Shown here piece by piece: positions 1,155 to 56,009 of a stretch of 64,000 nucleotides of DNA. The notes under the pieces are model-generated. The model was not told the origin of the DNA and ran no database searches. It saw only the letters and a program-made list of their open reading frames with translations. A program made the translations under genes and the position numbers. The stretch's first letter is position 1; the number at the start of each line of letters is the position of its first letter. Source of the stretch: Candidatus Omnitrophota bacterium (GTDB taxonomy: Bacteria > Omnitrophota > Omnitrophia > Omnitrophales > Aquincolibacteriaceae); NCBI GenBank assembly GCA_043732705.1, contig JAYTHE010000006.1, forward strand, positions 12,284 through 76,283, written 5' to 3'.

Positions 1155-1874
1155 ATGTTCCTTTTTCTTAAATTAGTTCTCGCGCATTTGATCGCTGATT
1201 TTATCCTTCAATTTGAAGAGCTTTATCAGCTGAAGGTGCGCAGTCATCTCGGGCATTTTTTTCACGCCCTTATTCACTTAATTGTTTCATTGCTGCTCGC
1301 GATTCCCTTCATTTTGGTCTATCCCTGGGTTGCGGTTTATATTTTTGTGCTGGCTGTGATTCATCATTTTCAAGATATCGTTAAATATAACCTTCAATCA
1401 AAATACCCAAAGCAAATTTTTTGGTGTTTTACGATTGATCAAATGGGGCACTTTCTTTTTTTGACGACGGCATTCTTTTTACCAATTGCTAATGAAGTTT
1501 ACGGCTTTCCGAGCTGGCCGACGCTTAATCGAATTTATCTTGATCCATGGATGACGCTGTTTTTAATCGCTTTTATCACGAGCACTTTTAAAGCGACTTA
1601 TTTTTTGCATGCTTTACGGCTCAGCTTTATTTCCGGATCGCGCCCCTTGCATTTCATCACCAGCTTTGAGGTTGCGCATGCGCTGATCGAACGTTCGTGG
1701 ATTACGGCTTGGATTTTATTTGCGCCGCTCGCGGTCGCGCTGCCTGCCGCCCTGGGCATTGGCGTTTTACGCCTGGGTTCGCCCTTGCTGAGAAACCGCA
1801 CTGATTTTATTTTAAGTTTCGTGTATGCGGCTCTGGTCGGCTTTGCCTTTCGTCCCTTACTCGGACGCGTCTGA
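1155..1874 (+). CDS. DUF3307-family polytopic membrane protein
   Basis: N-terminus LVLAHLIADFILQ matches the HLxADFxLQ signature of DUF3307; several hydrophobic helices; stop overlaps next start (TGATG). Confidence 0.5.
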   Translation: MFLFLKLVLAHLIADFILQFEELYQLKVRSHLGHFFHALIHLIVSLLLAIPFILVYPWVAVYIFVLAVIHHFQDIVKYNLQSKYPKQIFWCFTIDQMGHFLFLTTAFFLPIANEVYGFPSWPTLNRIYLDPWMTLFLIAFITSTFKATYFLHALRLSFISGSRPLHFITSFEVAHALIERSWITAWILFAPLAVALPAALGIGVLRLGSPLLRNRTDFILSFVYAALVGFAFRPLLGRV

Positions 1875-3142
1875 TGAGTCATCCGTCAGACCTGACGATT
1901 CAGAATCTTAAAAAAGTTCTCGCCATTAATGCGCAGCTTAATTCCACGCTCGAGATCGGTGCTTTGCTTGAAATTATTATGAAAACCGCCGCGGAGGTGA
2001 TGGACGCGGAAGTGGCTTCGCTTCTGCGCATGGATACCGAAGCGGGTGAGCTTGTGTTTCAAGTCGCTTTAGGGGAAAAGGGCGGAGAGCTCAAAGATAA
2101 ATTCCGCGTCAAGATCGGCGAAGGGATTGCGGGCACAGTCGCAAAAACCGGCGAATCTTTGATTGTGAATGACGTGAGCCGGGATGAGCGGTTTGCCAAA
2201 CGTTTTGACGTCTCAACCGGATTCGTGACGAAGGCCATTCTTTGTGTGCCGTTGCGCGCGGGAAATAAAATCATCGGCGTTTTGCAGGCGATTAATCCTA
2301 TCAATAGCCTGCCCTTTTCAGTTGACGATCAATTCTTGTTTGAAACCTTTGCGGATCTTGCGGCAATCGCGCTTGAAAACGCTCGTATGCACGGTGAGAT
2401 TGTGAAGCAGGAGCGCGCAAAACGGGATCTTAAGATCGCGCATGAAATTCAACAAAATTTTTTGCCGGACCTTTCCCGCAACCGGTTTTGCGTGGAAATC
2501 GCCGCTAAAAATATTCCCGCGCTTGATGTGGGCGGTGATTTTTATGATGTCGTCCAGCTGGACAAGGATAGGGTTGGTGTCGTGATCGGGGATGTTTCCG
2601 GTAAGGGTGTGCCAGCCGCGCTTTATATGGTGCGCGCGATATCCGAGTTTCGTTTTCTTTCGCATCAGCTGGCAAGTCCCGCGCAACTCTTGTTTGAACT
2701 GAATCGTGTGCTTTCTGAAAACAGCCCTTTTGGAATGTTTGTGACGCTCGTTTACATGGTGATTGATACGCGGTCTCAAGTTATGAGTTATGCTTCGGCC
2801 GGACATCACGCGATTTTGAAACGCGCCGCTAAATCCGGAAAAGTAGAAGCGCTTGAGAATATTGGGGGGCCGCCAATAGGGCTCGCGGAGGAATCGACCT
2901 ATAATCAAAATGAAATCACGATCGGATCCGGCGATGGATTTTTTGCCTATACTGACGGTGTTGTTGAGGCCCGCAATAAAAGCAAAGAAGAATATGGCAT
3001 GCAAAGGTTAGAGAGCTGCCTGCGAGAAACGCGCCGGAACGTGGCTGATTACGCGGATTTAATTCTATCTGATTTAAAAATTTTTACAGGCAATGTGGAT
3101 CCACATGACGATATCACTGTAATTGGCATGATCATTCCGTAG
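1874..3142 (+). CDS. GAF-domain PP2C-type Ser/Thr phosphatase (RsbU/SpoIIE-like)
   Basis: N-terminal GAF-like region followed by PP2C/SpoIIE motifs (GGDFYD, VVIGDVSGKG, HDDITVIGM). Confidence 0.8.
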   Translation: MSHPSDLTIQNLKKVLAINAQLNSTLEIGALLEIIMKTAAEVMDAEVASLLRMDTEAGELVFQVALGEKGGELKDKFRVKIGEGIAGTVAKTGESLIVNDVSRDERFAKRFDVSTGFVTKAILCVPLRAGNKIIGVLQAINPINSLPFSVDDQFLFETFADLAAIALENARMHGEIVKQERAKRDLKIAHEIQQNFLPDLSRNRFCVEIAAKNIPALDVGGDFYDVVQLDKDRVGVVIGDVSGKGVPAALYMVRAISEFRFLSHQLASPAQLLFELNRVLSENSPFGMFVTLVYMVIDTRSQVMSYASAGHHAILKRAAKSGKVEALENIGGPPIGLAEESTYNQNEITIGSGDGFFAYTDGVVEARNKSKEEYGMQRLESCLRETRRNVADYADLILSDLKIFTGNVDPHDDITVIGMIIP

Positions 3143-3235
3143 CACGCAAGAAACCAGCCACGAGGCTGCGTTACACGCAACCTCGGGATTCATAGATTAT
3201 TTAGCCGCAGTCGAAATTAATAAAGGAAATTTAGA

Positions 3236-5455
3236 ATGAGCAAAAAGAAAGCTTCTAAATTTTTAATCCCGCTTGTTTTGCTGGGCGCGGTGGTTGGTCT
3301 GCGGATTCTTTTTTCTGAAAAAGCAGATGATTTTTCCATGCGGGTTTTTGATCAATATCAAAAAATAAGGCCGCGCATTTATAAAGATACCCCCGTGCGT
3401 TTTATTGACATTGACGATGAGAGCCTTGCCAAGATAGGTCAATGGCCGTGGCCGCGTACGGTGTTGGCACAACTTATCTCCCATTTATCTGAAAAAGGCG
3501 CCTCTGTTATCGTGATGGATATTCTTTTTTCAGAAGCGGACCGTACTTCGCCTGCCCGGGCGCTTCCGTTATGGAACTCCGATTTACCGGAACTTCAAAC
3601 TTTAAAAACCAAAGTAAATTTGTTGCCAGATCATGATCAGGTTTTTGCCAAGGCTATTTCTGAAGCGCGTGTTGTTACGGGCTTTAATTTGACGACTGAT
3701 AAAACCGTGGGCTCTCCGTTGGTTAAAGCCGGTTTTGCGCATAGCGGTGAAGATCCGCTTGGATATTTACCCGCTTTTCATGGTGCTATTTCGAATCTTT
3801 CGATTTTTGAAAAAGAAGCGTTGGGTAATGGGAGCTTCAATTTTATCGCGGATTCCGATGCCGTTTTAAGGCGAGTGCCGCTTGTTTTCCGGTATGAGAA
3901 TCAGCTTGTGCCGTCGCTTGTGGCGGAAGCTGTGCGCGTGGCTCAGGGCGCTTCAAGTTTCGTGATTAAGTCTTCAACGGGCAGCGGTAAAACAAGTTTT
4001 GGAGAAAATACGGGGATAACTAATTTTAAAATTGGACAATTTGTTATCCCAACGGATGGTGAGGGCCGAATCTGGCTTTACGATACCGGAAGAATAAAAA
4101 AACGTTATCTCTCCGCCTCCAAGGTTCTCAGCAGCGATTTTGATCCCAAGCTCGTGGAAGGAAATGTTATTTTTGTAGGATCGAGCGCCGCGGGGCTTAA
4201 AGATTTGCGCGCCACGCCGCTGAGCTCGGTGTCGGCCGGGACGGAAGTTCACGCGCAACTGGTAGAGCAAATTTTAAATCAGGAGTTTTTAAGCCGTCCT
4301 GATTGGGCGCCGGGCGCCGAAATCTGTTTCGTGCTTGTGTTGGGTATCCTCCTGGTTTTTTTGTTGCCATGGCTGGGGGTTGTGGCGTCCGCGGTTTTTA
4401 GCGTGCTTTTGACTATGTTTGCCTTTGGATTTTCATGGTATGAATTCAGCACAAAGCATCAGCTTTTTGATCCGGTGACGCCATCACTCGTGGTGTTGAT
4501 TCTTTACTTGGCGATATCGTTGATGCATTACCTTCGGACGGAAGCCGAAAAAAATCAAATTCGCGGGGCTTTCGGGCAATATGTTTCACCCGCGCTTTTA
4601 GAGAAAATATCAAAAAATCCCGAGCAGTTGAAGTTGGGCGGGGAAACGCGCACGATGACTATTTTATTTTCCGATATCCGCAATTTTACAGCACTTTCCG
4701 AAAAATTGAGCGCTGAGGATTTAACGCTATTCATGAATCGCTATTTGACCCCCATGACAAATATTATTCTTAAAACGAATGGGACCATTGATAAATATAT
4801 CGGCGATTGCATTATGGCTTTTTGGAATGCGCCGGTATCGGATGCTGAGCATGTGCGGCATGCTTGCCAAGCTGCGCTTGAAATGCAAAGCCATCTCAAA
4901 GATTGGAATGTGTCGATGCGGGAAGAATTTAAAAAGAATGGAAAATTTTTTGAGCCCATCAAGGTTGGAATTGGTTTAAACACGGGGGAGTGTTGCGTGG
5001 GAAATGTGGGGTCGGAGCAACGCTTTGATTATTCTGTGTTGGGCGATGATGTGAATCTTGCTTCGCGCTTAGAGAGCCAATCTAAATTTTATGGAGTGGA
5101 TATTATCTTAGGCCCGTCAATGCAAACGCAAGCTCAAGACTATGCAATGCTTGAAATGGACTTAATTCGTGTTAAAGGCAAAACAAAGCCCGTTCAGATT
5201 TATGCTTTGCTGGGTAACGAAAGTGTAAAAAAAAGCAGTGTCTTTCAAGGTTTGGAAGCATTGCATCAAAAAATGATTTCATCGTATCGAACCCAACAGT
5301 GGGGGGAAGCCGAGAAAATAATGGATAGTCTTCTTGAGCAAAAAGGGTTTTTGCAGCTAGAAGATTTGTATAGGCTATATCAAAAAAGCATTCAAATCTA
5401 CAAACTTCGTCCTTTTGACCCCAACTGGGATGGTGTGAATAGTCTGAATCACTAG
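3236..5455 (+). CDS. CHASE2 sensor domain-containing class III adenylate/guanylate cyclase
   Basis: N-terminal TM, CHASE2-like extracytoplasmic region, TM block, then cyclase homology domain (ILFSDIRNFTALSE, GDCIMAFWNAP, GLNTGECCVGNVGS); RBS AAAGGAAA upstream. Confidence 0.85.
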   Translation: MSKKKASKFLIPLVLLGAVVGLRILFSEKADDFSMRVFDQYQKIRPRIYKDTPVRFIDIDDESLAKIGQWPWPRTVLAQLISHLSEKGASVIVMDILFSEADRTSPARALPLWNSDLPELQTLKTKVNLLPDHDQVFAKAISEARVVTGFNLTTDKTVGSPLVKAGFAHSGEDPLGYLPAFHGAISNLSIFEKEALGNGSFNFIADSDAVLRRVPLVFRYENQLVPSLVAEAVRVAQGASSFVIKSSTGSGKTSFGENTGITNFKIGQFVIPTDGEGRIWLYDTGRIKKRYLSASKVLSSDFDPKLVEGNVIFVGSSAAGLKDLRATPLSSVSAGTEVHAQLVEQILNQEFLSRPDWAPGAEICFVLVLGILLVFLLPWLGVVASAVFSVLLTMFAFGFSWYEFSTKHQLFDPVTPSLVVLILYLAISLMHYLRTEAEKNQIRGAFGQYVSPALLEKISKNPEQLKLGGETRTMTILFSDIRNFTALSEKLSAEDLTLFMNRYLTPMTNIILKTNGTIDKYIGDCIMAFWNAPVSDAEHVRHACQAALEMQSHLKDWNVSMREEFKKNGKFFEPIKVGIGLNTGECCVGNVGSEQRFDYSVLGDDVNLASRLESQSKFYGVDIILGPSMQTQAQDYAMLEMDLIRVKGKTKPVQIYALLGNESVKKSSVFQGLEALHQKMISSYRTQQWGEAEKIMDSLLEQKGFLQLEDLYRLYQKSIQIYKLRPFDPNWDGVNSLNH

Positions 5456-5753: not shown

Positions 5754-5850
5754 CAAAACGAGCTCAACTATTCCGCCTTAGGCGGATAAATATTACGGGA
5801 GCGCTGCCCTCCGAAGGCAGAGGTTGCGCGTTCAATTCGCGCCGGGCACA
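5754..5850 (+). pseudogene. degenerate tRNA-Arg(CCG)-like copy: intact anticodon arm, T-arm and 3' acceptor strand, but no complementary 5' acceptor strand and a ~28-nt hairpin insertion (CCGCCTTAGGCGG) in the D-loop
   Basis: Aligned by eye against the upstream tRNA-Arg; shares CTGCCCTCCGAAGGCAG and CGGGCACA; T-arm differs (GCGCG-TTCAATT-CGCGC). Confidence 0.45.
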
Positions 5851-6033
5851 GTTATGTTTTTGGCTCTGTGCAAAGCACAACCGCCAGGAAAGAGTGTTCA
5901 ACAGTTTGTTTTTGAGTGTGAATTGAAGTCAGCTCGACGCGGCAACTATGTATTTTGGATTAAGTGGCTTGCGGTTGAGCGACCCGCTGCGCCAGAGCGT
6001 CAGCGCGGCGAGAGCCCAAGGAAAAAAGAATTC

Positions 6034-6711
6034 GTGAAGAAATTGTCTTTGCTGAAAAATTTAAAAAATCTTTTGATCATAGTCGTGGTGATCGCCGGAA
6101 TTGCCTGGGTAAAAGTTCTTTTCCACCGTGATCAGGTTTTGCGGCAGGTAATTGACCGGCTTTCCGCGGATACACGCGTTGCCGAAGTGGTGGTTACGAA
6201 AAGCGAGTTGGATGAAGTGAGCGGAAAAATTTTAACCACGATTAAATTTCTCGAGTACAACGCCAAAGGCGAACCGCTGGTTCCAAAGTATTTTACTTTT
6301 CGCGGCAATATTATTCAGTTTCAATCGCTTGTGATTCGCTTCAATGATAATTTGATCAAGAAAGGCGACAAGCTCAAAGGTAAAAGCGCCTATCTTTTTA
6401 TGAAAGCTTTTGTCCTGGATCCAAAAGATTTACAGGTTTTTGATATTACTCCGGCGCACACGGTTCCTGAAGGGTATCAAACCGATATTGAAGTGGCTGG
6501 CTTCGAACGTCAGCTTTGGGAAAAATTTTGGAATTACGCGCTCAATCCTCAGACCCGCGATCAGGTAGGAGTGAAGAACGCTCAAATTGAAGCGCCCGGC
6601 TCTTTGTTTCTTCCCGGAACTATTTACACTTTAAAAATCGAACATGACGGCGGTATCCGGATTGATACGCAGCCGATTCCACAAATTTTGAAAGGCGAAA
6701 AAATCGCATGA
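6034..6711 (+). CDS. hypothetical membrane-anchored protein (N-terminal TM LLIIVVVIAGIAW); the GTG at 6034 is preferred over the track's ATG at 5824, which lies inside the tRNA region
   Basis: ORF in track 5824..6711; in-frame GTG at 6034 preceded by AAGGAAAAAAG; stop overlaps queA start (ATGA). Confidence 0.45.
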   Translation: MKKLSLLKNLKNLLIIVVVIAGIAWVKVLFHRDQVLRQVIDRLSADTRVAEVVVTKSELDEVSGKILTTIKFLEYNAKGEPLVPKYFTFRGNIIQFQSLVIRFNDNLIKKGDKLKGKSAYLFMKAFVLDPKDLQVFDITPAHTVPEGYQTDIEVAGFERQLWEKFWNYALNPQTRDQVGVKNAQIEAPGSLFLPGTIYTLKIEHDGGIRIDTQPIPQILKGEKIA

Positions 6712-41130: not shown

Positions 41131-42843
41131 ATGAAAAAAAATCCTTCTAGTTTGATTGCCCTAGTGGGCGTTTTTTGTGTTTTTGCCCTCACGCCGAATC
41201 TTCTTTCGGCGCAAACCTCTTTTTCCGACAATTCCGATATAAAGTCGTCCGATCTCAATTTAGATAAAGAGTTAGACAAGGCTATGGCCAAAGAAGGCAA
41301 ATCTTCTCCGACTCATGTCGCGGGAAAACCTGCACTTGAAACCTCAGCCCAATTGCACAAAGTTAAAGAAGCTCCCAAGCCGAATCTTTTCGCAAAAACA
41401 TTTTTTGCTTCACCCGCGAAAAAATCCGAATCCATCGCGACTGATGTTCAAGGGTTTACTGTGGTTCACACTCCTTCCCGGAAAATGGACTCGGAATATG
41501 CCGTGATCACCGACTTTGGCGGCGAGGTAGTAAAGACCCGATATCTGAAAGGTCTCAAAACAATTGATGACGTGAATGACTATGTTCAAAAGAATTTAGA
41601 AACAGCGGAAGAAGGAAATGTTGAAATTCGCAAAATGAAATTGCCGGGTGAGGGTGGTCAAACTCTTTTTTGGGTGGGCGATAAATCTTTCACCAGCTTG
41701 GATGAGGCTAAACAATGGATCGCGAAAGTTCGCCAGCAGGTTGTGGAGATCGGCGGTAACTTTGATGAAATGGTGAGCGAGGCTCAAACGCCCGTTGAGA
41801 TTGAAAATGAATATGTGACCCAATTTGACCAGCAAGATTACATTCCGAATCAGAAAAAAGAAGAAGATATGGTTTTGAAATGGGCCGATCAAATGGATCT
41901 TGGCGAAGAACTTTGGGGGCCTTTCCATGGCGATCCCGCGGGTGAGCCGATCCTGTGGCAGTCATTCGGTGAAACTACTTATCGTAAAACAAATCTTGAA
42001 GACAACAAATATAATAGTCAGGTCGCGTATTGGACTAACCGGGTTGTTTTACGAGGCATTCGGTTTCCGCTTAACACCTTGGACCCTTACCTTGAAACGA
42101 CCGCGGTTATGGAAGCCGTCTCGGAAGATTATAAAAGCTACGCTGACTTTTTTGCGGGTGTGGAATGGCGGCCGCTCGCGCGCAATCATTGGCTTGAAAA
42201 TTACCGTCCGATAGGCAATATCAGTATTTTAAAATGGATACGTAATTACCGGTTTTATGTTCAGTACGGTGACCGCAAAAACATCAAAGACGAAATTCAG
42301 GCTAAAGATTGGGATTATCAAGCCGGCGTGCAAATGTTTTATGAGTTTGGAGTTGAACTTCCGGATTTGAGTCAGCCGGCCCCCGAAAGTTTCCCCGAAT
42401 ATTTACAGGAATATGTTTGGGGTGAGTATTTCGCGAAATATCGTTACGAACGCACAAGCTTTTCCACAGACAAAGACTCTCGAGCGATCATTCTTGAAAA
42501 CTCGCTGATTTTGGGACTTAAGATGCCTGGCATTCCTTTACCGGAGAATCCCGTAAACAATGAAATTAAACTCATGCCGTATATTCACCTCAATCAAACT
42601 TGGAATGATAACCATTCTTTTTCTTATCAGAACTATTATTATGTCGGCGCGGGCGTGCGCTGGATGCCTTTTAATACATGGCGGCATAAAGAAAACGAAT
42701 GGCTTTCTAAGATTAAAGTATTTGGTGAATGGATTGCGATTGGCAAGACGCAATATGTGAAAGTCGACAGCTCAGAGAATGGCGACAATTTAGTCCGCAA
42801 TGATTTACGTTTCGGCGTCAGCTTCGCGAGCCGCAGATACTAA
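41131..42843 (+). CDS. secreted protein with signal peptide, probable outer-membrane beta-barrel (570 aa, C-terminal ...RFGVSFASRRY)
   Basis: Signal peptide MKKNPSSLIALVGVFCVFALTP...; alternating aromatic/hydrophilic pattern in C-terminal half; terminal aromatic residue. Confidence 0.45.
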   Translation: MKKNPSSLIALVGVFCVFALTPNLLSAQTSFSDNSDIKSSDLNLDKELDKAMAKEGKSSPTHVAGKPALETSAQLHKVKEAPKPNLFAKTFFASPAKKSESIATDVQGFTVVHTPSRKMDSEYAVITDFGGEVVKTRYLKGLKTIDDVNDYVQKNLETAEEGNVEIRKMKLPGEGGQTLFWVGDKSFTSLDEAKQWIAKVRQQVVEIGGNFDEMVSEAQTPVEIENEYVTQFDQQDYIPNQKKEEDMVLKWADQMDLGEELWGPFHGDPAGEPILWQSFGETTYRKTNLEDNKYNSQVAYWTNRVVLRGIRFPLNTLDPYLETTAVMEAVSEDYKSYADFFAGVEWRPLARNHWLENYRPIGNISILKWIRNYRFYVQYGDRKNIKDEIQAKDWDYQAGVQMFYEFGVELPDLSQPAPESFPEYLQEYVWGEYFAKYRYERTSFSTDKDSRAIILENSLILGLKMPGIPLPENPVNNEIKLMPYIHLNQTWNDNHSFSYQNYYYVGAGVRWMPFNTWRHKENEWLSKIKVFGEWIAIGKTQYVKVDSSENGDNLVRNDLRFGVSFASRRY

Positions 42844-42968: not shown

Positions 42969-45900
42969 ATGAAAAAAGAAATTAAAAAAGTAATTTCGGG
43001 ATTGATGATTGCCGCGCTCGTTTTGACGGGTTTGCAGCCGCATGCCTTTGCCCGCGCCATCATGGAGTCCTCGCCGGTTTCAACGGATCCTTTTTCAATT
43101 CACAATTCTTTGATTAATCCGGGCTTTGAAGGCGCTATCAGCAGCGGCTTTGGAAATTGGGATAGTACTAATGGAGTTACGCGTGTAACAACGCCCCCAG
43201 GACTTTTTACAGCCTTCCCTGAAGGAAGCGCGGCGCTTTCCGTTACGCCGGGAACTTTTACTTTTCAGGTTGTGGATCATGTTAAGCCCGGGGATGTTGT
43301 GTCATTTAGTGCTTTGGCATCGTCTAACTTTGCCATCGGCGTTAATGCGGCAGATTTGAAGATAGAATTTAAAAGAATTAATTCCGACGGTAGTGACACT
43401 TTAATTTCAACGGCGCCTCTTTCCTCCAATATAAACGATACAAGCGCTCCTGTTGGGAGTTATACACTTTTTACTGCTTCCGGAGTTGTGCCGGCGGGTG
43501 CGAATCGTGTTATTGCGGTCATTGAGACATCGGGTGGGGCGGCGGCGACTCGCGCTATTATTGATAAGACTGTGATTTCCATTAATCCGACGGCTTTCCG
43601 TGTCGAGCTCTCGAAGCGCAGTGCGAAGGCCGGTGATGTGGTTCCCGCGCGCGTTACTTTTACCAATCAATCTAATAGTACCTTTACCGGTGTCCAATTG
43701 CATACGGTGGTTCCCAAAGGCATGAATGTGAATCTCTCTGAGGTTCGTAATAATGGACAAGACGCGCATGCCACCGAAGGTTCGGTGATTATACCGATCG
43801 GGACCGTCGTTGCGGGCGCTAGCTTCAGCCTCGTGCTTCCGATCGCGATTACCGGTGGAGTGATGCCGGGGCATGTTTACGATCTTGATTTTACTTTGAT
43901 GGATTCTGCGAGCATGCATGAAACCGCGCGCGAACGGCTTTTGATCGAAGAAGACCCGATGTTTGACCAAAGCACTGTGATCGGAAAAGTTTTTCATGAC
44001 CGCAACCGCGACGGCAAACAGCAGGAAGGTGAAGAGGGCATGTCTTTCGTGAACCTTTACACCGAGCAAGGCATTATGGTTACAACCGATGAAAACGGAA
44101 TGTACCATATTCCTAATATGAATCCCGGCCGCCATGTGCTTAAGATTGACGCGCATACTCTTCCCGACAACACAGAATTTATTACCGAAGAATCTTATTT
44201 GTTTAAAAGTACTCCGGGCGTGATGAATAAAGTTAATTTTGCTGTGGCTCCGCGCGGCAAGGCAGATTGGGAAGGCGGCAATCCAAACATGCCTGAGGAC
44301 TTTAAAGGCGACCTCAATGTGCAGATTACGCAGGGTTTGGACACAGCTCCGCCGCAGCTTGACGTGAAGATGGAACCGGATGTTTTACGTTTGGGCGCCG
44401 GCATTTTAGAGCGTCAACCTCTTTTCAGTTTTGACATTAATTATCCGCATGTGGTGAAAAAGTGGATGCTTGAAATTCGCGATGAAATGGGCCGCAAGGT
44501 TTGGTCGGGTTATGGTATTGGAAAACCTCCCGCGGACGTGATGTGGGAAGGATTAACGGACGCGGGCGTTCTGATTCAACCCGGAATTTATTCTTATCAG
44601 TTTAAAGTAGAAGATGACAAAGGCCGGCAGGATTGGACTTTGCTCAAATTTTTCCGTGTCTTTTCAAAGGTCGGGAAAACCGCTGTCGGAGAGGATTGGG
44701 AAGGTTCGCGCAAAGAAGAAAAGGTTTATCAGGCCAGCCCCAAAGCGGATCCGAATTACCGCGAAGAAATTTCACCCGTCGGAAATTTCAATCTTTTTCA
44801 AGACGGGAAACGCAGCATTCCTTTGATTGCCAAACCAACCGTACGTGTACGCGGGCGAACACATCCGGGTTTTAAAGCGTATATCAATGACGCGCCGGTG
44901 GATGTGAATGATGAAACGGGCCGTTTCGATAAAGAATTTTACGTGAAGCCCGGTGAAAATGAATTTGTAATCAATGTCGTTTCACCGGAAGGGGAAAGCA
45001 CGCTTTATACCGAAAAAGTGAAAGTTAAAGACAGTATGTTTTTCATGGTCGGATTGGGCGAGCAGGAATTGGGTAAAAATTTTGGAAAAGGAGCTGTTGA
45101 GACGGCGGGCGGCGATAAGCAGTATCGGGATGGTTTTTATCAGAATGGACGTTTGGCTTATTTTCTGAAAGGTAAGTTGAAAGGAAAATTCCTGATTAAA
45201 TCGAAGTTTGATTCCGGCGATAAGCGTTCGGCGCTTTTTACCAATCTTGATCCCGATCAGTACTATCCGATTTATGGTGATAAATCGCAGATCAGTTATG
45301 AGGGGCTCAATACCGAATCCCGTTTTTACACGCTTGTAGAAATGGACCGCTCTTTTTTACGCTGGGGAAGTTTTCAAACGCAATTTGATGATACCGAATT
45401 AGCCAGCTATAACCGCACGCTTTCCGGTTTACAGGTTCACCACGAATCGCTACAAACCACGCCTTACGGCGACCCTAAACGCGGCTTTAAAGTTTTTTGG
45501 TCTGAAAGCAAAAATCGGTCAGCGCATGTGGAGCTCGAATCCACCGGCGGGACACTTTATTATCTGCGCGATCGCAATATTGTTCAGGGCAGCGAACAGC
45601 TGCATGTTGAGATCCGGGATAAACTGCAGGACATTTCCATCGGCCGCTATGATCTGAAAGAAGGTGCGGATTATGAAATTGATTATGAATCCGGCAGAAT
45701 TATGCTCACTCGTCCGCTTTCATCGCTTGCCGCGCCGAACACGCTTTTTTCAACCGACCTGGCTGACGGCAACAGAATTTTTTTAACGGCTGATTATGAA
45801 TATGTCGCTGGCTTTGATCCCGCGAAAGTCGGAGATCGCGGCGCGCGCGGCTATGTGCATTTGGGCGACCACATTCGTGTGGGCGGAACACTTGTTGAAG

Positions 45901-47738
45901 AAAAGCGTGACGCGGTGGATTACGATATGCGCGGAGTCGACATGACCATGAAATTCGGCCGCAATACGCGCATTATTTCGGAGTATGCTACGACCATCAA
46001 TCAGCAGGGAGACCAGACGGTTTCTTATGACGGAGGTTTGACATTCGCGAATCTGGGGCCGCTTTCGGACCGCAAAGATGAAGCTCGCAGCCGCGCTTAT
46101 TTAATTAAAGCTGAAAGTAAACCGGTTAAGAACTTAGAAGTGAGCGGATTTTTACAAGGCGTATCGCCGGGCTTTTCAAATGATACTTTGAAAAGCCAGG
46201 AAGGTTATAAAAAGTATGGTTTCGCGAGTCGTTATCGTTTGACGGACAATTTACACGCCAAATACCGCTATGATCATAATGAGATCACAGACAGCCTGCT
46301 GCCGTTGACTTCCAGTTCCGTTTTAGCACCGTATGAAAATATGAACGCGCATACGCTGGGCCTGACTTATGACGATGGCCTTTGGCTCGCAGAGACTGAA
46401 TATCTTCACCGAACCCTTGATGGTCCTGACAATGAAAGCCGTGTTTCGCCTTCGCTTGAATCCGAAATTCCTTTTAATGACGGTGTGGTCTCCAAATTAG
46501 GATACCGCGTGAATGACAAATTCATGCCTTATGCCAAGGCACAAACTTCCTTTCATACGAAGGGTGACACGCAGCTTGGCGGCGGCATGCGCTATGAAGT
46601 TGCGCAAAATCTTTACGCTTACCTTGAACAGATGTTCGGTAAAATCGGAGATTCCACTTTATTTGGAATTGAAAAGCATCACGGCAATGGATCAAGCACT
46701 TATGCCAATTTAAAATCACTCGACCGTGGTATTGGCTACAAAACATTGACGACCGCGGTCGGCAGTAATTATTTCATGGATAACGGTTCGCGGCTTTATT
46801 CGGAGCGCGAAATCACGACCTACAATGCCAAAGATGGCTTTGCCGACATTATGGGTTACGATGGCAAGGCCGGTGATCATTGGGATTACGGCGGACGTTT
46901 TGAGCGCCGCCGTCTGCAGGATTCAACCACCCAGCGTTTAGATATTTTAGCCAGCAGCGCCCTTGCGCGCGCGAATGCTTATAACACCGTGGGCGCACAT
47001 GTGGCCTACATTGGTACGGAACAAAGAGAAGGCGCGGGCGCGGCTCAGCATTATTCTCCTTTCGATAAACTGAAAGCACGCGTTTCGGGCGAAGTTCGTA
47101 AAGATCAAAATAACCCCAATCTTTGGCAGGTGGTAACGCGTGATTCCGTTGAATACAAAATAACCCGTGATTTAAATTTTATGACCTACTTGAATTCCGG
47201 CGTGACGCATTTAACAAAGCATGTTTTTAATGCTGATTTTATGGAGTGGAATACAGGCTTTGCCTACCGCCCGATCAATTTCGACCGTCTCAATTTACTG
47301 ACGCGTTATACTTATGTTGAAAACAATCTTGATTATTTACAGTTGAGCGGCAAGCTGGATAGCTCGGCGCACATTATTCAGCTTGATGCGTCCTATGACG
47401 TGAACCGTTATTTTGAGATTGTTGAGAAGGTTGGTTTCAAGCGCGCGGTCGCGTCTTATTTTTCTGATGATGCCATACTGAATTCGATGCTTTGGGCAAA
47501 CCGCATTAACTTTCACGTTACACGGAAATGGGATGTCGCGACAGAGTATCGCATCCTTTTTCAGGGGAATGCCGCGGACACGAAAAAACACGGAGCTCTT
47601 TTTGAAGTGGACCGCGAAATTTATGAATATGTGCGTGTCGGCGCCGGTTATGACTTTGCTAATTTTACCGATGACCTGAGAAAGGCCAACAACTACTCAA
47701 GTCACGGGCCTTTTGTCCGTATGACAGGGAAGTTCTAA
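42969..47738 (+). CDS. giant (1589 aa) outer-membrane protein: signal peptide, CBM4_9-like N-domain (LINPGFEG...W), DUF11-like repeat, Cna-B/SdrD-B-like domain, very large C-terminal beta-barrel-like region ending ...FVRMTGKF
   Basis: Domain motifs read from the translation; C-terminal Phe and ~1000 aa of beta-strand-like alternation. Confidence 0.5.
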   Translation: MKKEIKKVISGLMIAALVLTGLQPHAFARAIMESSPVSTDPFSIHNSLINPGFEGAISSGFGNWDSTNGVTRVTTPPGLFTAFPEGSAALSVTPGTFTFQVVDHVKPGDVVSFSALASSNFAIGVNAADLKIEFKRINSDGSDTLISTAPLSSNINDTSAPVGSYTLFTASGVVPAGANRVIAVIETSGGAAATRAIIDKTVISINPTAFRVELSKRSAKAGDVVPARVTFTNQSNSTFTGVQLHTVVPKGMNVNLSEVRNNGQDAHATEGSVIIPIGTVVAGASFSLVLPIAITGGVMPGHVYDLDFTLMDSASMHETARERLLIEEDPMFDQSTVIGKVFHDRNRDGKQQEGEEGMSFVNLYTEQGIMVTTDENGMYHIPNMNPGRHVLKIDAHTLPDNTEFITEESYLFKSTPGVMNKVNFAVAPRGKADWEGGNPNMPEDFKGDLNVQITQGLDTAPPQLDVKMEPDVLRLGAGILERQPLFSFDINYPHVVKKWMLEIRDEMGRKVWSGYGIGKPPADVMWEGLTDAGVLIQPGIYSYQFKVEDDKGRQDWTLLKFFRVFSKVGKTAVGEDWEGSRKEEKVYQASPKADPNYREEISPVGNFNLFQDGKRSIPLIAKPTVRVRGRTHPGFKAYINDAPVDVNDETGRFDKEFYVKPGENEFVINVVSPEGESTLYTEKVKVKDSMFFMVGLGEQELGKNFGKGAVETAGGDKQYRDGFYQNGRLAYFLKGKLKGKFLIKSKFDSGDKRSALFTNLDPDQYYPIYGDKSQISYEGLNTESRFYTLVEMDRSFLRWGSFQTQFDDTELASYNRTLSGLQVHHESLQTTPYGDPKRGFKVFWSESKNRSAHVELESTGGTLYYLRDRNIVQGSEQLHVEIRDKLQDISIGRYDLKEGADYEIDYESGRIMLTRPLSSLAAPNTLFSTDLADGNRIFLTADYEYVAGFDPAKVGDRGARGYVHLGDHIRVGGTLVEEKRDAVDYDMRGVDMTMKFGRNTRIISEYATTINQQGDQTVSYDGGLTFANLGPLSDRKDEARSRAYLIKAESKPVKNLEVSGFLQGVSPGFSNDTLKSQEGYKKYGFASRYRLTDNLHAKYRYDHNEITDSLLPLTSSSVLAPYENMNAHTLGLTYDDGLWLAETEYLHRTLDGPDNESRVSPSLESEIPFNDGVVSKLGYRVNDKFMPYAKAQTSFHTKGDTQLGGGMRYEVAQNLYAYLEQMFGKIGDSTLFGIEKHHGNGSSTYANLKSLDRGIGYKTLTTAVGSNYFMDNGSRLYSEREITTYNAKDGFADIMGYDGKAGDHWDYGGRFERRRLQDSTTQRLDILASSALARANAYNTVGAHVAYIGTEQREGAGAAQHYSPFDKLKARVSGEVRKDQNNPNLWQVVTRDSVEYKITRDLNFMTYLNSGVTHLTKHVFNADFMEWNTGFAYRPINFDRLNLLTRYTYVENNLDYLQLSGKLDSSAHIIQLDASYDVNRYFEIVEKVGFKRAVASYFSDDAILNSMLWANRINFHVTRKWDVATEYRILFQGNAADTKKHGALFEVDREIYEYVRVGAGYDFANFTDDLRKANNYSSHGPFVRMTGKF

Positions 47739-47887: not shown

Positions 47888-48295
47888 ATGCGATCAAAAT
47901 ATTTGGCCGGGACGTATTTATGTTTTGCGCTTGGCTTGGCCGCCTGTGCGGGATCCCAAAAATATCTTCCGATTGAACAAATTCCCGCCGGAAACAACGA
48001 AGAAATTCACGTTGCGAAGGCTTATGACTTTGTTTATCTGAATGTTTTTGATACGGTGAATGCTCTTCCTGACTGGGCTCCGGATAAGACCTTGAAAGAT
48101 GAGGGGCTGATTCGTTTGAAGAACACGCAGTTTTCACGCTTTGATGACTCAAGCAATCGTGTTATTAATCTTCATATCCGCCGCGATAGCGCGCTGCAAA
48201 CAAGCGTTTACCTCGATCCTGACTCCCGTCGTGTCATCGGCGCGGATCAAGTTTTGGCTGCGATCCGCAAAAAGTTCAGCATCCCGGCAGCTTGA
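47888..48295 (+). CDS. small lipoprotein (lipobox LAAC)
   Basis: MRSKYLAGTYLCFALGLAACAGSQ signal/lipobox; stop overlaps uvrA TTG start. Confidence 0.5.
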   Translation: MRSKYLAGTYLCFALGLAACAGSQKYLPIEQIPAGNNEEIHVAKAYDFVYLNVFDTVNALPDWAPDKTLKDEGLIRLKNTQFSRFDDSSNRVINLHIRRDSALQTSVYLDPDSRRVIGADQVLAAIRKKFSIPAA

Positions 48296-51151: not shown

Positions 51152-51736
51152 ATGAATCTTTTTACTTCCAAGAAACATTTTTACATGGCGGGATATCTGT
51201 TGTTGATAGGTTTTTTACATGTGAATGCCATTTTGAAAGCGGAGGATCCGATTGCGGACACGCAAACAGAAGCCATTTCTTATGATCAAAAAATGGAACA
51301 AGATAAAGATGGAGTCAAAGCTCCGGCAACTCCCAAAATGATTTATTACGGCGGACAGGGGTTTTTAACCCGGAGTTCCTTGTCGAAATACGAAAATGAA
51401 ATTGCTTCTGCTTCAAAGGGCAAGAAAAAAGAAAAATTCAACTGGTCCGATTGGTGGGAAGATAAGCCATCTGAAACTCAAACGGACACGGCAGAAATTA
51501 AGCCTGCGGAAACAGTTGAGCCGGAAATACTTCAAGGCACGGATTTGCCGGCGGCGAAAGACAGTAGTTTGGATTCACAGCAAACGGATATAAAAGAAAA
51601 AAAGACGGATGAAAAACCGGCCGGTTCGGCTCAAACCGTCTTGGAAGAAGAAAGTTTCCCAGGGGAAGAAAGTGCGGCTCCGGATCAATCTCAGCCTCCC
51701 GCAGGGGGGAATACGAAGGGTGACGATTGGTGGTAG
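51152..51736 (+). CDS. hypothetical secreted/membrane-anchored acidic low-complexity protein (ends ...GDDWW)
   Basis: N-terminal hydrophobic segment then E/D/K/T-rich disordered sequence. Confidence 0.4.
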   Translation: MNLFTSKKHFYMAGYLLLIGFLHVNAILKAEDPIADTQTEAISYDQKMEQDKDGVKAPATPKMIYYGGQGFLTRSSLSKYENEIASASKGKKKEKFNWSDWWEDKPSETQTDTAEIKPAETVEPEILQGTDLPAAKDSSLDSQQTDIKEKKTDEKPAGSAQTVLEEESFPGEESAAPDQSQPPAGGNTKGDDWW

Positions 51737-51851
51737 AAGCAGTTTTGAGGGATAAAATGAGGGCTTTTCACGTATTTTATTCCAATTCAGTTTCAGACTC
51801 CAAAGCCGTTAATTCTTCAGGTAATTAAGGTCTGCACGACCTGGTCCTTTT

Positions 51852-51860
51852 TGATATAAT
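51852..51860 (+). promoter_or_regulatory. extended -10 promoter element TGATATAAT upstream of the FtsH-like gene
   Basis: Consensus TGnTATAAT read from sequence; -35 weak. Confidence 0.35.
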
Positions 51861-51913
51861 CCTGTCTTTATTGCGCCTTCTTTTAGGTGCGTTTCTAAGG
51901 AGAACACGAATTT

Positions 51914-53593
51914 ATGGTCATGAAAAAACGCCGCTTACAGCTTTTCTTTATTGAGCATGGTGGAACCATGGGTGTGATTGCGGGCGCCTTGGTCTTGATC
52001 GCGTTATGTGCATGGGGATTGATGAGCCTCGAAAGTTATTATCGAAATATTACTCTTGCTCAGATTCCGCTTAATTTTCTTTCGGTGATCGTGAATGCGG
52101 TTGTATTCGCTTACATCTACATGAACATGATGGGCCGCGGCTTTTCAGGTATCGGAAAGAAAGGTATTAAGGCCAATCAGGTTAATATTAAGTTTGATGA
52201 CGTGGTGGGAATTGATGAAGCAAAAGATGAATGCCGTGAAGTTGTGGACTTAATCAAAGATCACACCCGTCTTAAAAATATCGGCGGAAAAATTCTGCGC
52301 GGCGTTCTCATGATCGGGCCTCCGGGCTGCGGGAAAACCTATATTGCGAAAGCAATCGCGACTGAAACCGGCTTACCGTTTCTTTCTATGGCGGCCAGCG
52401 AATTCAACGAAGTGTTTGTGGGTGTTGGTGCAAGCCGTGTCCGTCAGCTTTTCAAAAAAGCACGCCGTTTGGCTTATGGCTATGGCGGCTGCGTGATATT
52501 TATCGACGAACTTGATGCCATGGGGCAAAAGCGTACTTTCAGCCAATTTGGCAGCGGCGAAGGCAATACGACCCAAAACCAGTTGCTTGTGGAGTTGGAT
52601 GGATTGGGTGGCGGTGCGACTGAGAATATTGTCGTCATCGGCGCGACCAACGCTTCCGAAGATATTTTGGATCCCGCGCTTTTGCGTCCGGGCCGTCTTG
52701 ACCGCAAAGTTTATATCAACAAGCCTAATTTGGAAGGCCGCGAAGCCGTGTTTAATCTTTATCTTAAAAAAGTAAAACATGATTCGAGCGTCGACCCCAA
52801 ACGTTTGGCGCGTCGCGCAATCGGTTATTCTCCCGCAGAAATTGAAAACGCGGTAAAAGAATCCGCGCTTGTAGCAACACGCAACAAACGCGACGTGATT
52901 ACTTGGAGCGATATGACGGAAGCCTTGGACCGTATTGAGCTTGGTTTCAAAATTAAACTGACGATTAATTCAAGAGAACGTGAAATGACGGCTTATCACG
53001 AAACGGGTCATTTGATTATCACGTATTTGCTTCATCCACGCGACGATGTCTTTAAGGCGTCTATTTTGCCGCGTAAAAACACCTTGGGTGTGGTTTACCA
53101 TGTTCCTTTGGAAGAGTGGCACACGCAAGACAAGGAGTCCTTAACAGCTCAAATCAAGATTGCTTTGGGCGGATTTGCCGGAGAACGCGTCAAATATGGA
53201 ACATCCACATCGGGTGTTTCTTCGGATTTTAAATCTGCGATGGGAGTTGCGCATACCATGGTTTGGAAATTGGGTATGGGGCCGTCCAGCCTTGTCGGAG
53301 ATTTTACAGTTGTGCCCGAAGGGCAATTATCGCGCGAAGTGGTGACTCAGTTGAGTCAAGATACTCAAAAAATTCTTACGGATTGTTTGAAAGAAGTAGA
53401 AGATTTATTGCGCAAAGAAAAGCCGTTGTTTGAACGTTTTGCCCAAGAATTAATTTCTAAAGGCGAGTTGCAGTATGACGAAATTGAGGCGATTTTTGCT
53501 GAGTTTGGGAAGGTCAATCCCAGAAAATTCGGCGGATCGGTTGCTTCTGCTGCTTCTGCGGACTCGAAGTATTTGCCGCCGTCTGCGCGTTAA
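51914..53593 (+). CDS. FtsH-family ATP-dependent zinc metalloprotease paralog with minimal periplasmic loop
   Basis: Two N-terminal TM helices ~14 aa apart, Walker A GPPGCGKT, second region of homology, HETGH zinc motif; 559 aa. Confidence 0.8.
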   Translation: MVMKKRRLQLFFIEHGGTMGVIAGALVLIALCAWGLMSLESYYRNITLAQIPLNFLSVIVNAVVFAYIYMNMMGRGFSGIGKKGIKANQVNIKFDDVVGIDEAKDECREVVDLIKDHTRLKNIGGKILRGVLMIGPPGCGKTYIAKAIATETGLPFLSMAASEFNEVFVGVGASRVRQLFKKARRLAYGYGGCVIFIDELDAMGQKRTFSQFGSGEGNTTQNQLLVELDGLGGGATENIVVIGATNASEDILDPALLRPGRLDRKVYINKPNLEGREAVFNLYLKKVKHDSSVDPKRLARRAIGYSPAEIENAVKESALVATRNKRDVITWSDMTEALDRIELGFKIKLTINSREREMTAYHETGHLIITYLLHPRDDVFKASILPRKNTLGVVYHVPLEEWHTQDKESLTAQIKIALGGFAGERVKYGTSTSGVSSDFKSAMGVAHTMVWKLGMGPSSLVGDFTVVPEGQLSREVVTQLSQDTQKILTDCLKEVEDLLRKEKPLFERFAQELISKGELQYDEIEAIFAEFGKVNPRKFGGSVASAASADSKYLPPSAR

Positions 53594-53615
53594 GAACGCT
53601 GTTCTAAGCCGCATT

Positions 53616-55196
53616 ATGGCGAATAAACAAAAATCAGTCCTTCGCAAAGTTGCGCAAGGACTGATTTTTGTTTTTATGCCGATTTTGCTACTTTCCGCGT
53701 GTTTGAAAAGTACTTATCCTGAAAACTACGTCAAAGAATCCATTCTTAAAATTCTTCGTACGGAATACAGCATTCCCATGGCCCAGGTTGAGATTACCGG
53801 GAAAACGATTCATCTCTACCTGCCTGTCGAACGTTTGTTTACGGCGGACCTTGATGATATTAAAGTCTCTTTTGTGAGAATTTTGGGCATTCCCGTAAAA
53901 AATGGTTTTGTCGTGTGGACTGCACGTATTCTCTCGGGTCCGCAGGACGGTTATTGGGAATTGCTGGCGAGAATGTATCACGCGGAGCTTCTCCGCTGGT
54001 TCAAAATGGATTGGGTTGAGACGAAAGCAGAAAAGAAAAAAATCGAAAAAATTCAAGACGCGATTGAACTTCACCCCGAAGTTCAGGATGAGATCGGTCA
54101 AATGTTGTTCGCGGTGGCGCGCGTCGCACGCAGTACGGATCTCAAGCTTGATTTTTATGCCGCGCAAATTACAGACGTGAGATCAGGGCATGAATTTATT
54201 CTGCAGGGCTATTTGCAGGATATGAATCGCTTGCAGCTCATGGATATTTCTCAGGCCGAGTATCACAAGCGTATGCTGAAAGACACGCATGTGAATAACC
54301 GCGCACAAGTTCATTTTCCGGTGCGGAACTTTTTTTTAGATTTGAATCAAAAAACACGGGAAGACGTGCAGCAAAAGTATTTTGAAAAACTCACTTCTTT
54401 GGATTGGATGGACCGGTTCTATTTTAGAGACAAGAAGAAAAAGCTGTTTCCGGTTTCACAGATGACTTGGGAGATTGAGGATATTCGCAGCTTTTTAAGC
54501 CCCGCCGGCGGGCGTGCGTTGGTCTATGTAAAAACGGAAATGCTTTCGCGCACCGATCAGAAGACCGTAAAACCCCTGGAAGAAGAGTTTTTATTTGAAA
54601 TTTTGATTCGGAGCAAGTCGGTTCAAATTTTACGGATCATTCCGTTCAGTCTTTTAAATGAGATGTTGGCGGGCATGCCGGAATTTAATATGAGCGAAAA
54701 GACATTGCAGGAAAATATCAAGACATGGCGTTCGGAATTTGAACCAAAAGAAATTTTTCTCGAAGATTTTTTAGCCAAACAAATGATGATGCGCCTTTAC
54801 GATGATATTTATCAGGATGAACGCATCGCGAATACCTTTACCGACCTGCACTTTGAAGTCCGTTTCCGGCGTGAGCCCAAACGTGAATTTGTTTTTGAGG
54901 TGCGTCCAGCGTTAAAAGACCCGAAGGCCATTACTTCGGGCAGGCCTTTGTCGGAGCATGAGGACATGGTTTATTTGGAGAATCAATTTGTAAGCCGTGC
55001 GGCAGCCACTTTCCATAGTTATGGGTATAAAGATTTTGAAAATATGACAATCGAGCTTCCCGCTGAGGGCGAGAGGCTCATCGTGTCACCGGACCATTTA
55101 GAGCTCTTTTACCGCAAGAAGAAGCGCTTGGGAGATGTTTTACTGCGTGACAGTAACCCTATTCCGTCTGAGGAAACAGTTCCCCAAGGCAATTGA
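53616..55196 (+). CDS. large lipoprotein of unknown function (526 aa, lipobox LLSAC)
   Basis: Start placed at MANKQK ATG (53616); the track start at 53475 would overlap the FtsH-like 3' end. Confidence 0.5.
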   Translation: MANKQKSVLRKVAQGLIFVFMPILLLSACLKSTYPENYVKESILKILRTEYSIPMAQVEITGKTIHLYLPVERLFTADLDDIKVSFVRILGIPVKNGFVVWTARILSGPQDGYWELLARMYHAELLRWFKMDWVETKAEKKKIEKIQDAIELHPEVQDEIGQMLFAVARVARSTDLKLDFYAAQITDVRSGHEFILQGYLQDMNRLQLMDISQAEYHKRMLKDTHVNNRAQVHFPVRNFFLDLNQKTREDVQQKYFEKLTSLDWMDRFYFRDKKKKLFPVSQMTWEIEDIRSFLSPAGGRALVYVKTEMLSRTDQKTVKPLEEEFLFEILIRSKSVQILRIIPFSLLNEMLAGMPEFNMSEKTLQENIKTWRSEFEPKEIFLEDFLAKQMMMRLYDDIYQDERIANTFTDLHFEVRFRREPKREFVFEVRPALKDPKAITSGRPLSEHEDMVYLENQFVSRAAATFHSYGYKDFENMTIELPAEGERLIVSPDHLELFYRKKKRLGDVLLRDSNPIPSEETVPQGN

Positions 55197-55227
55197 AAAA
55201 AGCCACGAATTTGCTATCATACGCGCC

Positions 55228-56009
55228 ATGCTAAGCCTTAGTTCTCGCCAATCATTTATTCTTAACCGGGTTGTGGATACATTTATTGAAACAGGGCATC
55301 CAGTGTCCTCACAAGCGGTGGCCTATGCCAGCCCTTCGCCGGTTTCTTCCGCTACAATTCGTAACGAAATGGGTACGCGGAGGATACGGGCTATCTTGTT
55401 CAGGCGCATCATTCCTCAGGCCGTATTCCCACCGACCGCGGTTACCGTCATTATTTGGATCATGGCATTGAGTCTTGTGAAATAAAAGGGGAGCTGTCAC
55501 GCCAATTGTCCGCAAGTTTTTTGAATCGTTTTAAAACTATGGAAGACACCCAGCCTTTTGCCGAAGAGATTACAGCCGTTCTTTCGGAGCTTTCGAGGCA
55601 GCTGGGTGTTTTGCTTGTGCCTGATACCGGTCCCGAAACTTGGAGCGAAGACCGGATGCAAATGAAGGCGCAAGGTTTGCGTTATTTATTGGAAAATCCG
55701 GAATGTCAGAACTCCGCGACGCTCCGTCCGCTTGTGCGTGCAGTCGAAGAAAAGGAAGCTTTGAAACGTTGGATCGGTGAGCATGCCTCTGAAGCAAATA
55801 CACAGGCTTTTGTCGGATCGGAGCATGAATTTGAAGAACTTGAAAATTATACGATTGTGACCGCCCGTTTTGAGTCGGGCGCGCATGGCCCGTCAGGGGC
55901 TGTCGCGATTATTGGATTGAAACGCATGGCTTACGCGAAAGTTTTGCCGATTGTTTCGGAAATGGCCCATTTAATGGGAACAACTTTTCGCGCGATGCGT
56001 CAAGGTTAA
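55228..56009 (+). pseudogene. hrcA: heat-inducible transcription repressor HrcA, interrupted by an apparent 1-nt frameshift at ~55371-55374 (GGG run): N-terminal part in one frame, remainder in the +2 frame
   Basis: Frame A: MLSLSSRQSFILNRVVDTFIETGHPVSSQ...SATIRNEMG; frame C continues YAEDTGYLVQAHHSSGRIPTDRGYRHYLDHGIE... to a typical HrcA C-terminus; joined reading restores the HrcA signature ATIRNEMxxLE(D)xGYL. Confidence 0.55.

Follow-up and report, generated by a model that had tools for sequence, protein, structure and literature searches.

In bacteria and organelles alike, membrane-bound quality control and regulation by proteolysis fall to FtsH, a universal protease whose periplasmic domain, together with partners such as HflK/C, is thought to control both the assembly of the enzyme and the access of its substrates. 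What, then, is left on the outer side of the membrane when an FtsH is encoded without this domain, and is there anything nearby that could take its place? The question is posed by a stretch of 64,000 nucleotides (nt) from an Omnitrophota bacterium (the window, whose numbering is used for all coordinates), in which an ftsH-like gene lacking the region for the periplasmic domain is followed immediately by the gene for a large lipoprotein. The reading proposed here, to which we give about an even chance, is that the two constitute a two-gene FtsH system, where a minimally anchored FtsH is co-expressed with a lipoprotein that would act as its extracytoplasmic partner. A preliminary description of the locus had named three open reading frames (ORFs), for a small acidic protein, the FtsH-like protein and the lipoprotein, and the ORF list confirms all three at the positions it gave, with hrcA-grpE-dnaJ following directly. 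The two genes on which the argument turns are:

51914 to 53593, forward strand: FtsH-family AAA+/M41 zinc metalloprotease of 559 residues without a periplasmic domain (Pfam/NCBIfam matches, structure alignment, orthologues)
53616 to 55196, forward strand: lipoprotein of 526 residues with the lipobox LSAC, Cys29 and then a conserved xxxTYP, directly 3' of the ftsH-like gene

An FtsH without its periplasmic domain

What identifies the protein as an FtsH, and what is missing from it? Its Pfam matches are to AAA (PF00004, 4.7e-37), AAA_lid_3 (PF17862, 1.1e-9) and Peptidase_M41 (PF01434, 8e-35), and the same search does not find FtsH_ext (PF06480, ~70 residues). The match to TIGR01241, the FtsH equivalog, reaches 445.4 bits against a cutoff of 600 and covers only profile positions 106-598, and with PRK10733 at 319.3 against 1008 neither of the canonical-FtsH equivalog cutoffs is reached. 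Among solved structures, residues 51-489 align with residues 102-546 of E. coli FtsH (7vhp) and residues 61-533 with residues 124-610 of T. maritima FtsH, and Yme1 and AFG3L2 are also found among the sequence matches. Because the alignments to solved structures start at the second transmembrane (TM) helix, homology to FtsH begins at TM2 and the periplasmic domain of ~70-75 residues is absent. A hydropathy scan predicts two TM segments, at residues 21-39 and 48-66, and the two helices are joined by an extracytoplasmic turn of ~10-14 residues. The preliminary description had put the helices ~14 residues apart, with no periplasmic domain of ~70 residues between them, and this is borne out by hydropathy, Pfam, TIGR01241 and the 7vhp alignment alike.

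The short loop is not a peculiarity of the window genome, since it recurs in the orthologous loci without exception (80/80), each with two predicted TM segments, a loop of ~8-25 residues and a Walker A motif near residue 133, a position that compares with ~195 in E. coli FtsH. The named database matches of the protein all come from Candidatus Omnitrophota/Omnitrophica metagenome-assembled genomes, and hundreds of clusters of Omnitrophota proteins, ~551 residues long, share 65-70% identity with it. The Omnitrophota form thus shares with canonical FtsH (E. coli FtsH/HflB and the T. maritima enzyme) the two-helix anchor, the AAA+ module with its FVG pore loop and arginine fingers, and the M41 HExxH site, but has a turn of ~10-14 residues where the canonical protein carries the ~70-residue FtsH_ext.

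Nothing comparable has been lost on the cytoplasmic side. In 43 orthologues the Walker A motif (G135-PPGCGKT-142), the Walker B residues D198/E199, the pore-loop F168-V-G, N246, the second-region-of-homology arginines R258/R261/R264 and the H362-E-T-G-H366 zinc site are invariant, so that the Walker and HETGH motifs which had been called intact in one sequence prove to be so across the family. In the region of the third acidic zinc ligand E424 is at least 90% conserved and D438 is invariant. Since the Walker, pore-loop, arginine-finger and HETGH motifs are all invariant, the enzyme should be active. An AlphaFold2 model of the protein was too poor (pLDDT 59.9, pTM 0.42) and was used neither for a fold search nor for the loop.

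Is this the only FtsH of these bacteria, or an accessory paralogue with a specialised job that works beside a canonical, periplasmic-domain FtsH encoded elsewhere? The second possibility, which concerns the identity of the protein and not its mechanism, can point to a score that falls short of the FtsH equivalog cutoff (445 against 600) and to the fact that only 64 kb of the genome are in view, and yet we consider it unlikely. No second FtsH is found in the 64-kb window. The short form is conserved throughout the phylum, at the 65-70% identity given above, as would be expected of an orthologous housekeeping gene, and the best 120 protein-search matches are all short or tandem forms, none of which has FtsH_ext. 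One Omnitrophota genome (58) in the Source Data published by Seymour et al. 2023 (PMC10066038) has a complete Pfam list that includes PF01434, PF00004 and PF17862 but not PF06480, along with K03798; hflK and hflC are missing from the complete KEGG Orthology list of that genome and from the part available for a second one (231). This leans towards a sole FtsH for what is one genome of unstated completeness. Most bacteria, according to a review (PMC9020784), have a single ftsH. The short-loop gene may therefore be the only FtsH of the phylum.

A gene pair that outlasts its surroundings

The closest relatives of the window are collinear with it over 15 kb, which proves nothing about the pair because the whole neighbourhood is shared. 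Divergent loci were fetched for this reason, giving 80 species-level loci in which FtsH identity ranges from 52 to 96%, and their ORFs were searched with iterated profiles of each window protein. The source genomes are species representatives whose labels are almost all Omnitrophota or unclassified. A complete ftsH-like ORF is present in 76 of these loci, one of which has just 35 nt left past ftsH; a full lipoprotein homologue lies immediately 3' of the gene in 67 of the 76, and in 8 more there is a partial homologue cut by the contig end. The lipoprotein gene thus stands directly after the short-loop ftsH in each of the 75 informative loci. Whether the two genes are neighbours in other genomes had been left as a question by the preliminary description, and for the lipoprotein the answer is plain, so that on this point the description withstands the refutation it had set for itself. 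The gap between them has a median of ~13 nt, with several 4-nt overlaps, and is 22 nt in the window, where a generic scan that performed at background level overall reported no consensus promoter or terminator.

Could the adjacency simply be an inherited gene order in a narrow clade, and functionally meaningless? The 15-kb collinearity of the closest relatives is what such an explanation would predict, but it is contradicted by the divergent lineages, where FtsH is only 52-57% identical and every other neighbour has been replaced (by an RND pump, rpe/pmm, hisG, ispE or a split transketolase) while the pair is still adjacent and co-oriented. We regard this explanation as close to negligible. 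Gene order is also kept despite unequal rates of change, with identity ranging over 52-96% for FtsH and 16-83% for the lipoprotein. Looked up in reverse, from the lipoprotein, the distant homologue P0183 lies directly after a 540-residue FtsH-like gene, and P0258 lies downstream of an ftsH-like 3' end as one of two tandem lipoprotein paralogues. Such strict pairing suggests a module made up of FtsH and a partner.

Several individual loci show variations on this arrangement. In three of them (L077, L082 and L091, for example L091 2255-7216) the pair sits between the N- and C-terminal halves of the split transketolase, and on a short metagenomic contig (L090, 450-2972) two tandem lipoprotein paralogues of 380 and 442 residues follow the 3' end of an ftsH-like gene. 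A tandem "double FtsH", encoded by some Omnitrophota, has two complete AAA+/M41 units per chain in 926-978 residues (P0021-P0023; L088 6001-8937 and L089 469-3288). Ahead of these units P0023 has a single hydrophobic segment and P0021 hardly any N-terminal region at all, and three such chains could form a hexamer. These double genes are then followed by a short member of the lipoprotein family, of 261-288 residues. The only extra "FtsH" match in the fetched loci, in L079, is ClpX.

The extracytoplasmic turn

What does the protease still present to the outside of the cell membrane? The part in question is the turn between TM1 and TM2:

52025 to 52063, forward strand: codons for the extracytoplasmic turn S38-LESYYRNITLAQ-50, a candidate docking site suggested by column conservation

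Within the first 90 residues of the FtsH-like protein, no stretch is nearly as well conserved as the turn, SLESYYRNITLAQ. Mean column identity over 75 orthologues is 0.87 for residues 40-53, as compared with 0.59 for TM1, 0.61 for TM2 and 0.84 for the AAA module, and in the alignment of 43 orthologues S38-A49 is mostly invariant. A mere connector would not stay so constant, and it is for this reason that something on the outer face probably reads the turn. The lipoprotein is the obvious candidate for this binder, and the turn would then be its docking site.

The lipoprotein family

The protein that would have to fulfil this role carries the signal peptide MANKQKSVLRKVAQGLIFVFMPILLLSAC29, which fits the lipobox [LVI][ASTVI][GAS]C. 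Most of ~70 homologues share the lipobox, and in the family alignments Cys29, R169, D202 and R219 are all invariant. The preliminary description had called this a large lipoprotein with no recognisable domains and had proposed profile searches of all three proteins; beyond the AAA, AAA_lid_3 and M41 domains of the FtsH-like protein these give no Pfam or NCBIfam match for either flanking protein, and the family profile of the lipoprotein matches no PDB sequence at E <= 10. Its distant homologues came from the fetched loci and from an exhaustive HMMER search, which, run over 1.84 billion representatives, places the family at 227 clusters (50% identity); a word-indexed search with a 36-sequence alignment returned only the same close homologues and one fragment. 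The family is therefore small and essentially lineage-restricted. A typical member has ~455 residues, the clade of the window has an insertion of ~55 residues, and short forms of 320-340 residues are without the middle domain.

An AlphaFold2 model built with 65 sequences is confident (pLDDT 86.8, pTM 0.81) and has several alpha+beta domains, at least one of them probably NTF2/VirB8-like. The fold begins 4-5 residues past the predicted lipidated Cys and the sequence CxxxTYP is conserved; taken with the lipobox, this means that the fold should sit right at the membrane anchor. The best Foldseek matches to the model are TcpC, the VirB8 domain of PrgL and the intermembrane domain of ARC6, all of them weak (E >1e-3), and the NTF2/VirB8-like matches include TcpC 3ub1, PrgL 7aed, DotI/TraM 3wz3/3wz4, ARC6 IMS 5d9r and the Tim44-like MRPL45. 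No solved structure found by Foldseek resembles the entire lipoprotein, and hhalign detects no internal repeat among its three regions. Folds of the NTF2/VirB8 type commonly serve as periplasmic scaffolds held at the inner membrane, and the predicted fold points to a membrane-proximal scaffold or a ligand-binding module, which names no function as such.

Transcription of the pair

How is the pair expressed, and with what? Two features lie ahead of the ftsH-like gene, with the acidic-protein gene further upstream:

51152 to 51736, forward strand: small acidic exported or membrane-anchored protein of 194 residues, an ORF with homologues upstream of ftsH-like genes
51852 to 51860, forward strand: extended -10 element TGaTATAAT, a putative promoter element for the ftsH-like/lipoprotein unit on the strength of its conservation
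51873 to 51890, forward strand: hairpin GCGCCU-N6-AGGUGC in the 5' untranslated region, between the promoter and the ribosome-binding site (RNA fold)

The block CTTTTTG(A/G)TATAATCC is invariant in 7 relatives, in which the rest of the intergenic region diverges. The generic promoter scan, which overall performed at background level, passed over the -10 element because there is no match to a -35 element. The 51-nt ftsH leader folds at -10.8 kcal/mol with a weak z-score of -1.8, and relatives keep a hairpin with altered stem bases. At 51828-51849, just 5' of the conserved -10 element, there is also a hairpin resembling a terminator, AGGTCTGCACGACCT with a T-run after it, which corresponds to a 13-14-nt insertion missing in the six aligned relatives.

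The preliminary description had seen the spacing of the acidic-protein, ftsH-like and lipoprotein genes as that of one co-transcribed trio. For ftsH and the lipoprotein gene, with their tight gap, this is likely, and the two are probably a transcription unit of their own. The acidic-protein gene may be transcribed apart from them, since the 177-nt gap before ftsH holds the conserved promoter.

The acidic protein itself has an N-terminal hydrophobic segment, a pI of 4.6 and 35 D+E against 22 K+R. It contains the motif EDPIxDTQTxxIxYxQKMEQxKDGVK, an internal WWE and a C-terminal DDWW-COOH, and its family consensus reads EDPIxDTQTxPIxYxQKxEEEKDGxKGP, an acidic low-complexity stretch, WWEE and a strongly conserved D-(D/Y)-W-W end. 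The C-terminus (51722-51733) resembles a C-terminal recognition peptide. A homologue is found upstream of the ftsH-like gene in 52 of the 64 loci with enough upstream sequence, with pairwise E-values to distant loci of 3e-17 and 6e-14, and it is usually accompanied by uvrA (42/49 loci). Two further loci have divergent acidic, signal-bearing counterparts in the same place, and in the deepest of the fetched lineages no acidic protein was found. As a conserved neighbour of this FtsH the acidic protein thus holds for the major subclade and fails for the deepest lineages.

A separately encoded extracytoplasmic subunit?

If these observations are brought together, a most likely mechanism can be outlined. 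The gene at 51914-53593 encodes the Omnitrophota FtsH, a membrane-anchored AAA+/M41 protease that by its motifs is catalytically competent, is presumably hexameric and has its outer part reduced to a very strongly conserved turn. It would be transcribed from its own extended -10 promoter together with the lipoprotein gene, such that the lipoprotein could be made alongside FtsH in matching amounts. The lipoprotein, on the extracytoplasmic face of the membrane, would bind the helical hairpin of FtsH or its turn, and as a separately encoded extracytoplasmic subunit it could serve as scaffold, gatekeeper or sensor, filling the role that falls elsewhere to the periplasmic domain of FtsH and to its partners, HflK/C for example. 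The WW-ended acidic protein would be a third component or a client, confined to one subclade and with its own transcription. A more specific form of the proposal is a split two-gene holoenzyme, in which the sole FtsH minus its periplasmic domain is completed by an obligate NTF2/VirB8-like lipoprotein of a new family docked on the near-invariant turn SLESYYRNITLAQ, supplying assembly, gating or envelope sensing, with the acidic protein as a third component in most lineages. This stricter version is put forward tentatively, as something possible but short of probable.

A number of points weigh against a partnership of this kind. The interaction between FtsH and the lipoprotein is one that we infer, and an enzyme can also be paired in a tight operon with its substrate, or with an envelope protein unrelated to it. 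The short family members, which lack the middle domain, do without the NTF2-like part, which is thus dispensable. There is also the matter of location: in E. coli, an Asp at the +2 position decides between the inner and the outer membrane, a rule that is not universal, and the residue at Cys+2 is rarely Asp among the lipoprotein homologues. Sorted in this way, the lipoprotein would end up in the outer membrane, at a distance from the turn of FtsH.

These points lead to the alternative that the two proteins are co-expressed without forming a complex, the lipoprotein being either a substrate controlled by FtsH or an unrelated envelope-biogenesis factor within a strongly expressed housekeeping operon. 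That the link is drawn from gene order, that the lipoprotein evolves much faster than FtsH, and that it has an ambiguous sorting signal and a generic fold are all as this explanation would have it. It is less at ease with a pairing that holds in 75/75 loci through turnover of the flanks, through duplication (L090) and through tandem fusion of FtsH, which would be unusual for unrelated operon mates, and it provides no binder for a strongly conserved extracytoplasmic turn that needs one. We judge it doubtful, if worth keeping in mind.

Relation to known systems

Is there precedent for an FtsH-type protease that is tuned from outside by a separate protein? HflK/C bind the FtsH periplasmic domain and modulate the enzyme. 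More broadly, Yme1 with Mgr1/Mgr3 and the m-AAA protease with prohibitins illustrate that FtsH-family proteases have variable non-core parts, and that the access of substrates is tuned by separate partners in the membrane. An extracytoplasmic partner is an idea shared with HflK/HflC, but in Omnitrophota the candidate is a lipoprotein with an NTF2-like predicted fold, and Pfam finds no SPFH/Band_7 domain in it or in the acidic protein. Yme1 is organellar, with one TM and unrelated partners, whereas the Omnitrophota FtsH-like protein has two predicted TM segments; homology of the lipoprotein to the partners of Yme1 and m-AAA is not detected by Pfam or by the family profile against PDB sequences.

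A further likeness is to outer-membrane lipoproteins that control inner-membrane enzymes, such as LpoA/LpoB with penicillin-binding proteins, RcsF with IgaA and NlpE with CpxA. The logic of a lipoprotein regulating a membrane enzyme from outside is alike, as is a Cys+2 residue that is usually not Asp. There is no sequence relation, however, and those lipoproteins reach their targets on long flexible tethers whereas the fold of the Omnitrophota lipoprotein starts 4-5 residues past its Cys. None of them is known to target FtsH.

What is new, then, is a lineage-wide domain loss in a known protease family together with a previously unnoticed, strictly conserved partner gene; no description of the short-loop Omnitrophota FtsH or of the lipoprotein family was found in the searchable literature. 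Current understanding of FtsH is neither overturned nor contradicted by this, and it is already clear from deletion work in E. coli that FtsH can function without the periplasmic domain. A phylum of ultra-small, possibly host-dependent bacteria with a bare-hairpin FtsH does, all the same, represent a natural experiment on what the extracytoplasmic part is for. It also provides a first functional context for an unannotated lipoprotein family, and the proposed association of FtsH with the lipoprotein is directly testable.

The neighbouring heat-shock genes

The features downstream of the pair belong to the heat-shock genes:

55193 to 55220, forward strand: promoter of hrcA-grpE-dnaJ (TTGAAA, 16 nt, TGcTATcAT), the best match of the promoter scan (10/12 positions plus TG), present in 7 relatives
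55228 to 56009, forward strand: hrcA, broken by a 1-nt deletion near 55370 (two reading frames, alignment), a neighbour that lies outside the module

Does the pair form part of a single heat-shock/proteostasis operon, comprising the acidic protein, FtsH, the lipoprotein, hrcA, grpE and dnaJ under the control of HrcA? FtsH is a heat-shock protein in model bacteria, and in the window, as in about half of the relatives, the genes lie side by side in one orientation with little space between them, so that the preliminary description, which had the FtsH module running straight into hrcA-grpE-dnaJ, was correct as to adjacency. What does not follow is a single transcription unit. hrcA comes after the pair in only 29/57 loci, its place being taken elsewhere by a giant protein gene, rubrerythrin or transketolase, and ftsH and hrcA each have their own conserved promoter. 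Furthermore, the controlling inverted repeat of chaperone expression (CIRCE; TTAGCACTC-N9-GAGTGCTAA) does not occur with <=3 mismatches in the 64-kb window, where a divergent operator is nevertheless possible. An operon shared with the heat-shock genes is accordingly very improbable, and the adjacency is a lineage-specific juxtaposition of separate transcription units.

Only 7 nt separate the -10 element of the hrcA promoter, which 7 relatives conserve, from the ATG, and the hrcA-grpE-dnaJ mRNA is for this reason probably leaderless. The N- and C-terminal parts of HrcA lie in two frames, where intact relatives have 261-265 residues, and an independent Logan assembly of SRR23617244 (L001) carries the identical deletion. 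Either hrcA is truly a pseudogene here, in which case the heat-shock genes would be derepressed, or the two assemblies have a sequencing error in common.

The remainder of the window

An anti-phage defence system was considered for the locus and rejected, since PADLOC gave only generic AAA matches (IetA at 5.7e-31, and TRIP13) as against 3.8e-133 for FtsH, and no match for the acidic protein or the lipoprotein. An Rfam scan of the window gives two tRNAs and nothing else. The rest is ordinary chromosome, with arginine and lysine biosynthesis, SecDF, RecJ, Tgt/QueA and UvrA, along with a 1,589-residue surface-type protein (SdrD_B/DUF11-type) encoded at 42969-47738. Between the gene for this surface protein and uvrA, at 47888-48295, lies a gene for a 135-residue protein with a lipobox of its own (LGLAAC) and without a Pfam match, whose position is kept in 45 loci of the set. 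Three sizeable ORFs are likewise without a Pfam match at E <= 1e-5, at 41131-42843 (570 residues), 30-1127 (365 residues) and 5824-6711 (295 residues). Finally, at 1874-5455 a gene for a GAF-SpoIIE (PP2C) phosphatase adjoins one for a CHASE2-adenylate/guanylate cyclase, a possible signalling pair that is unrelated to the FtsH finding.

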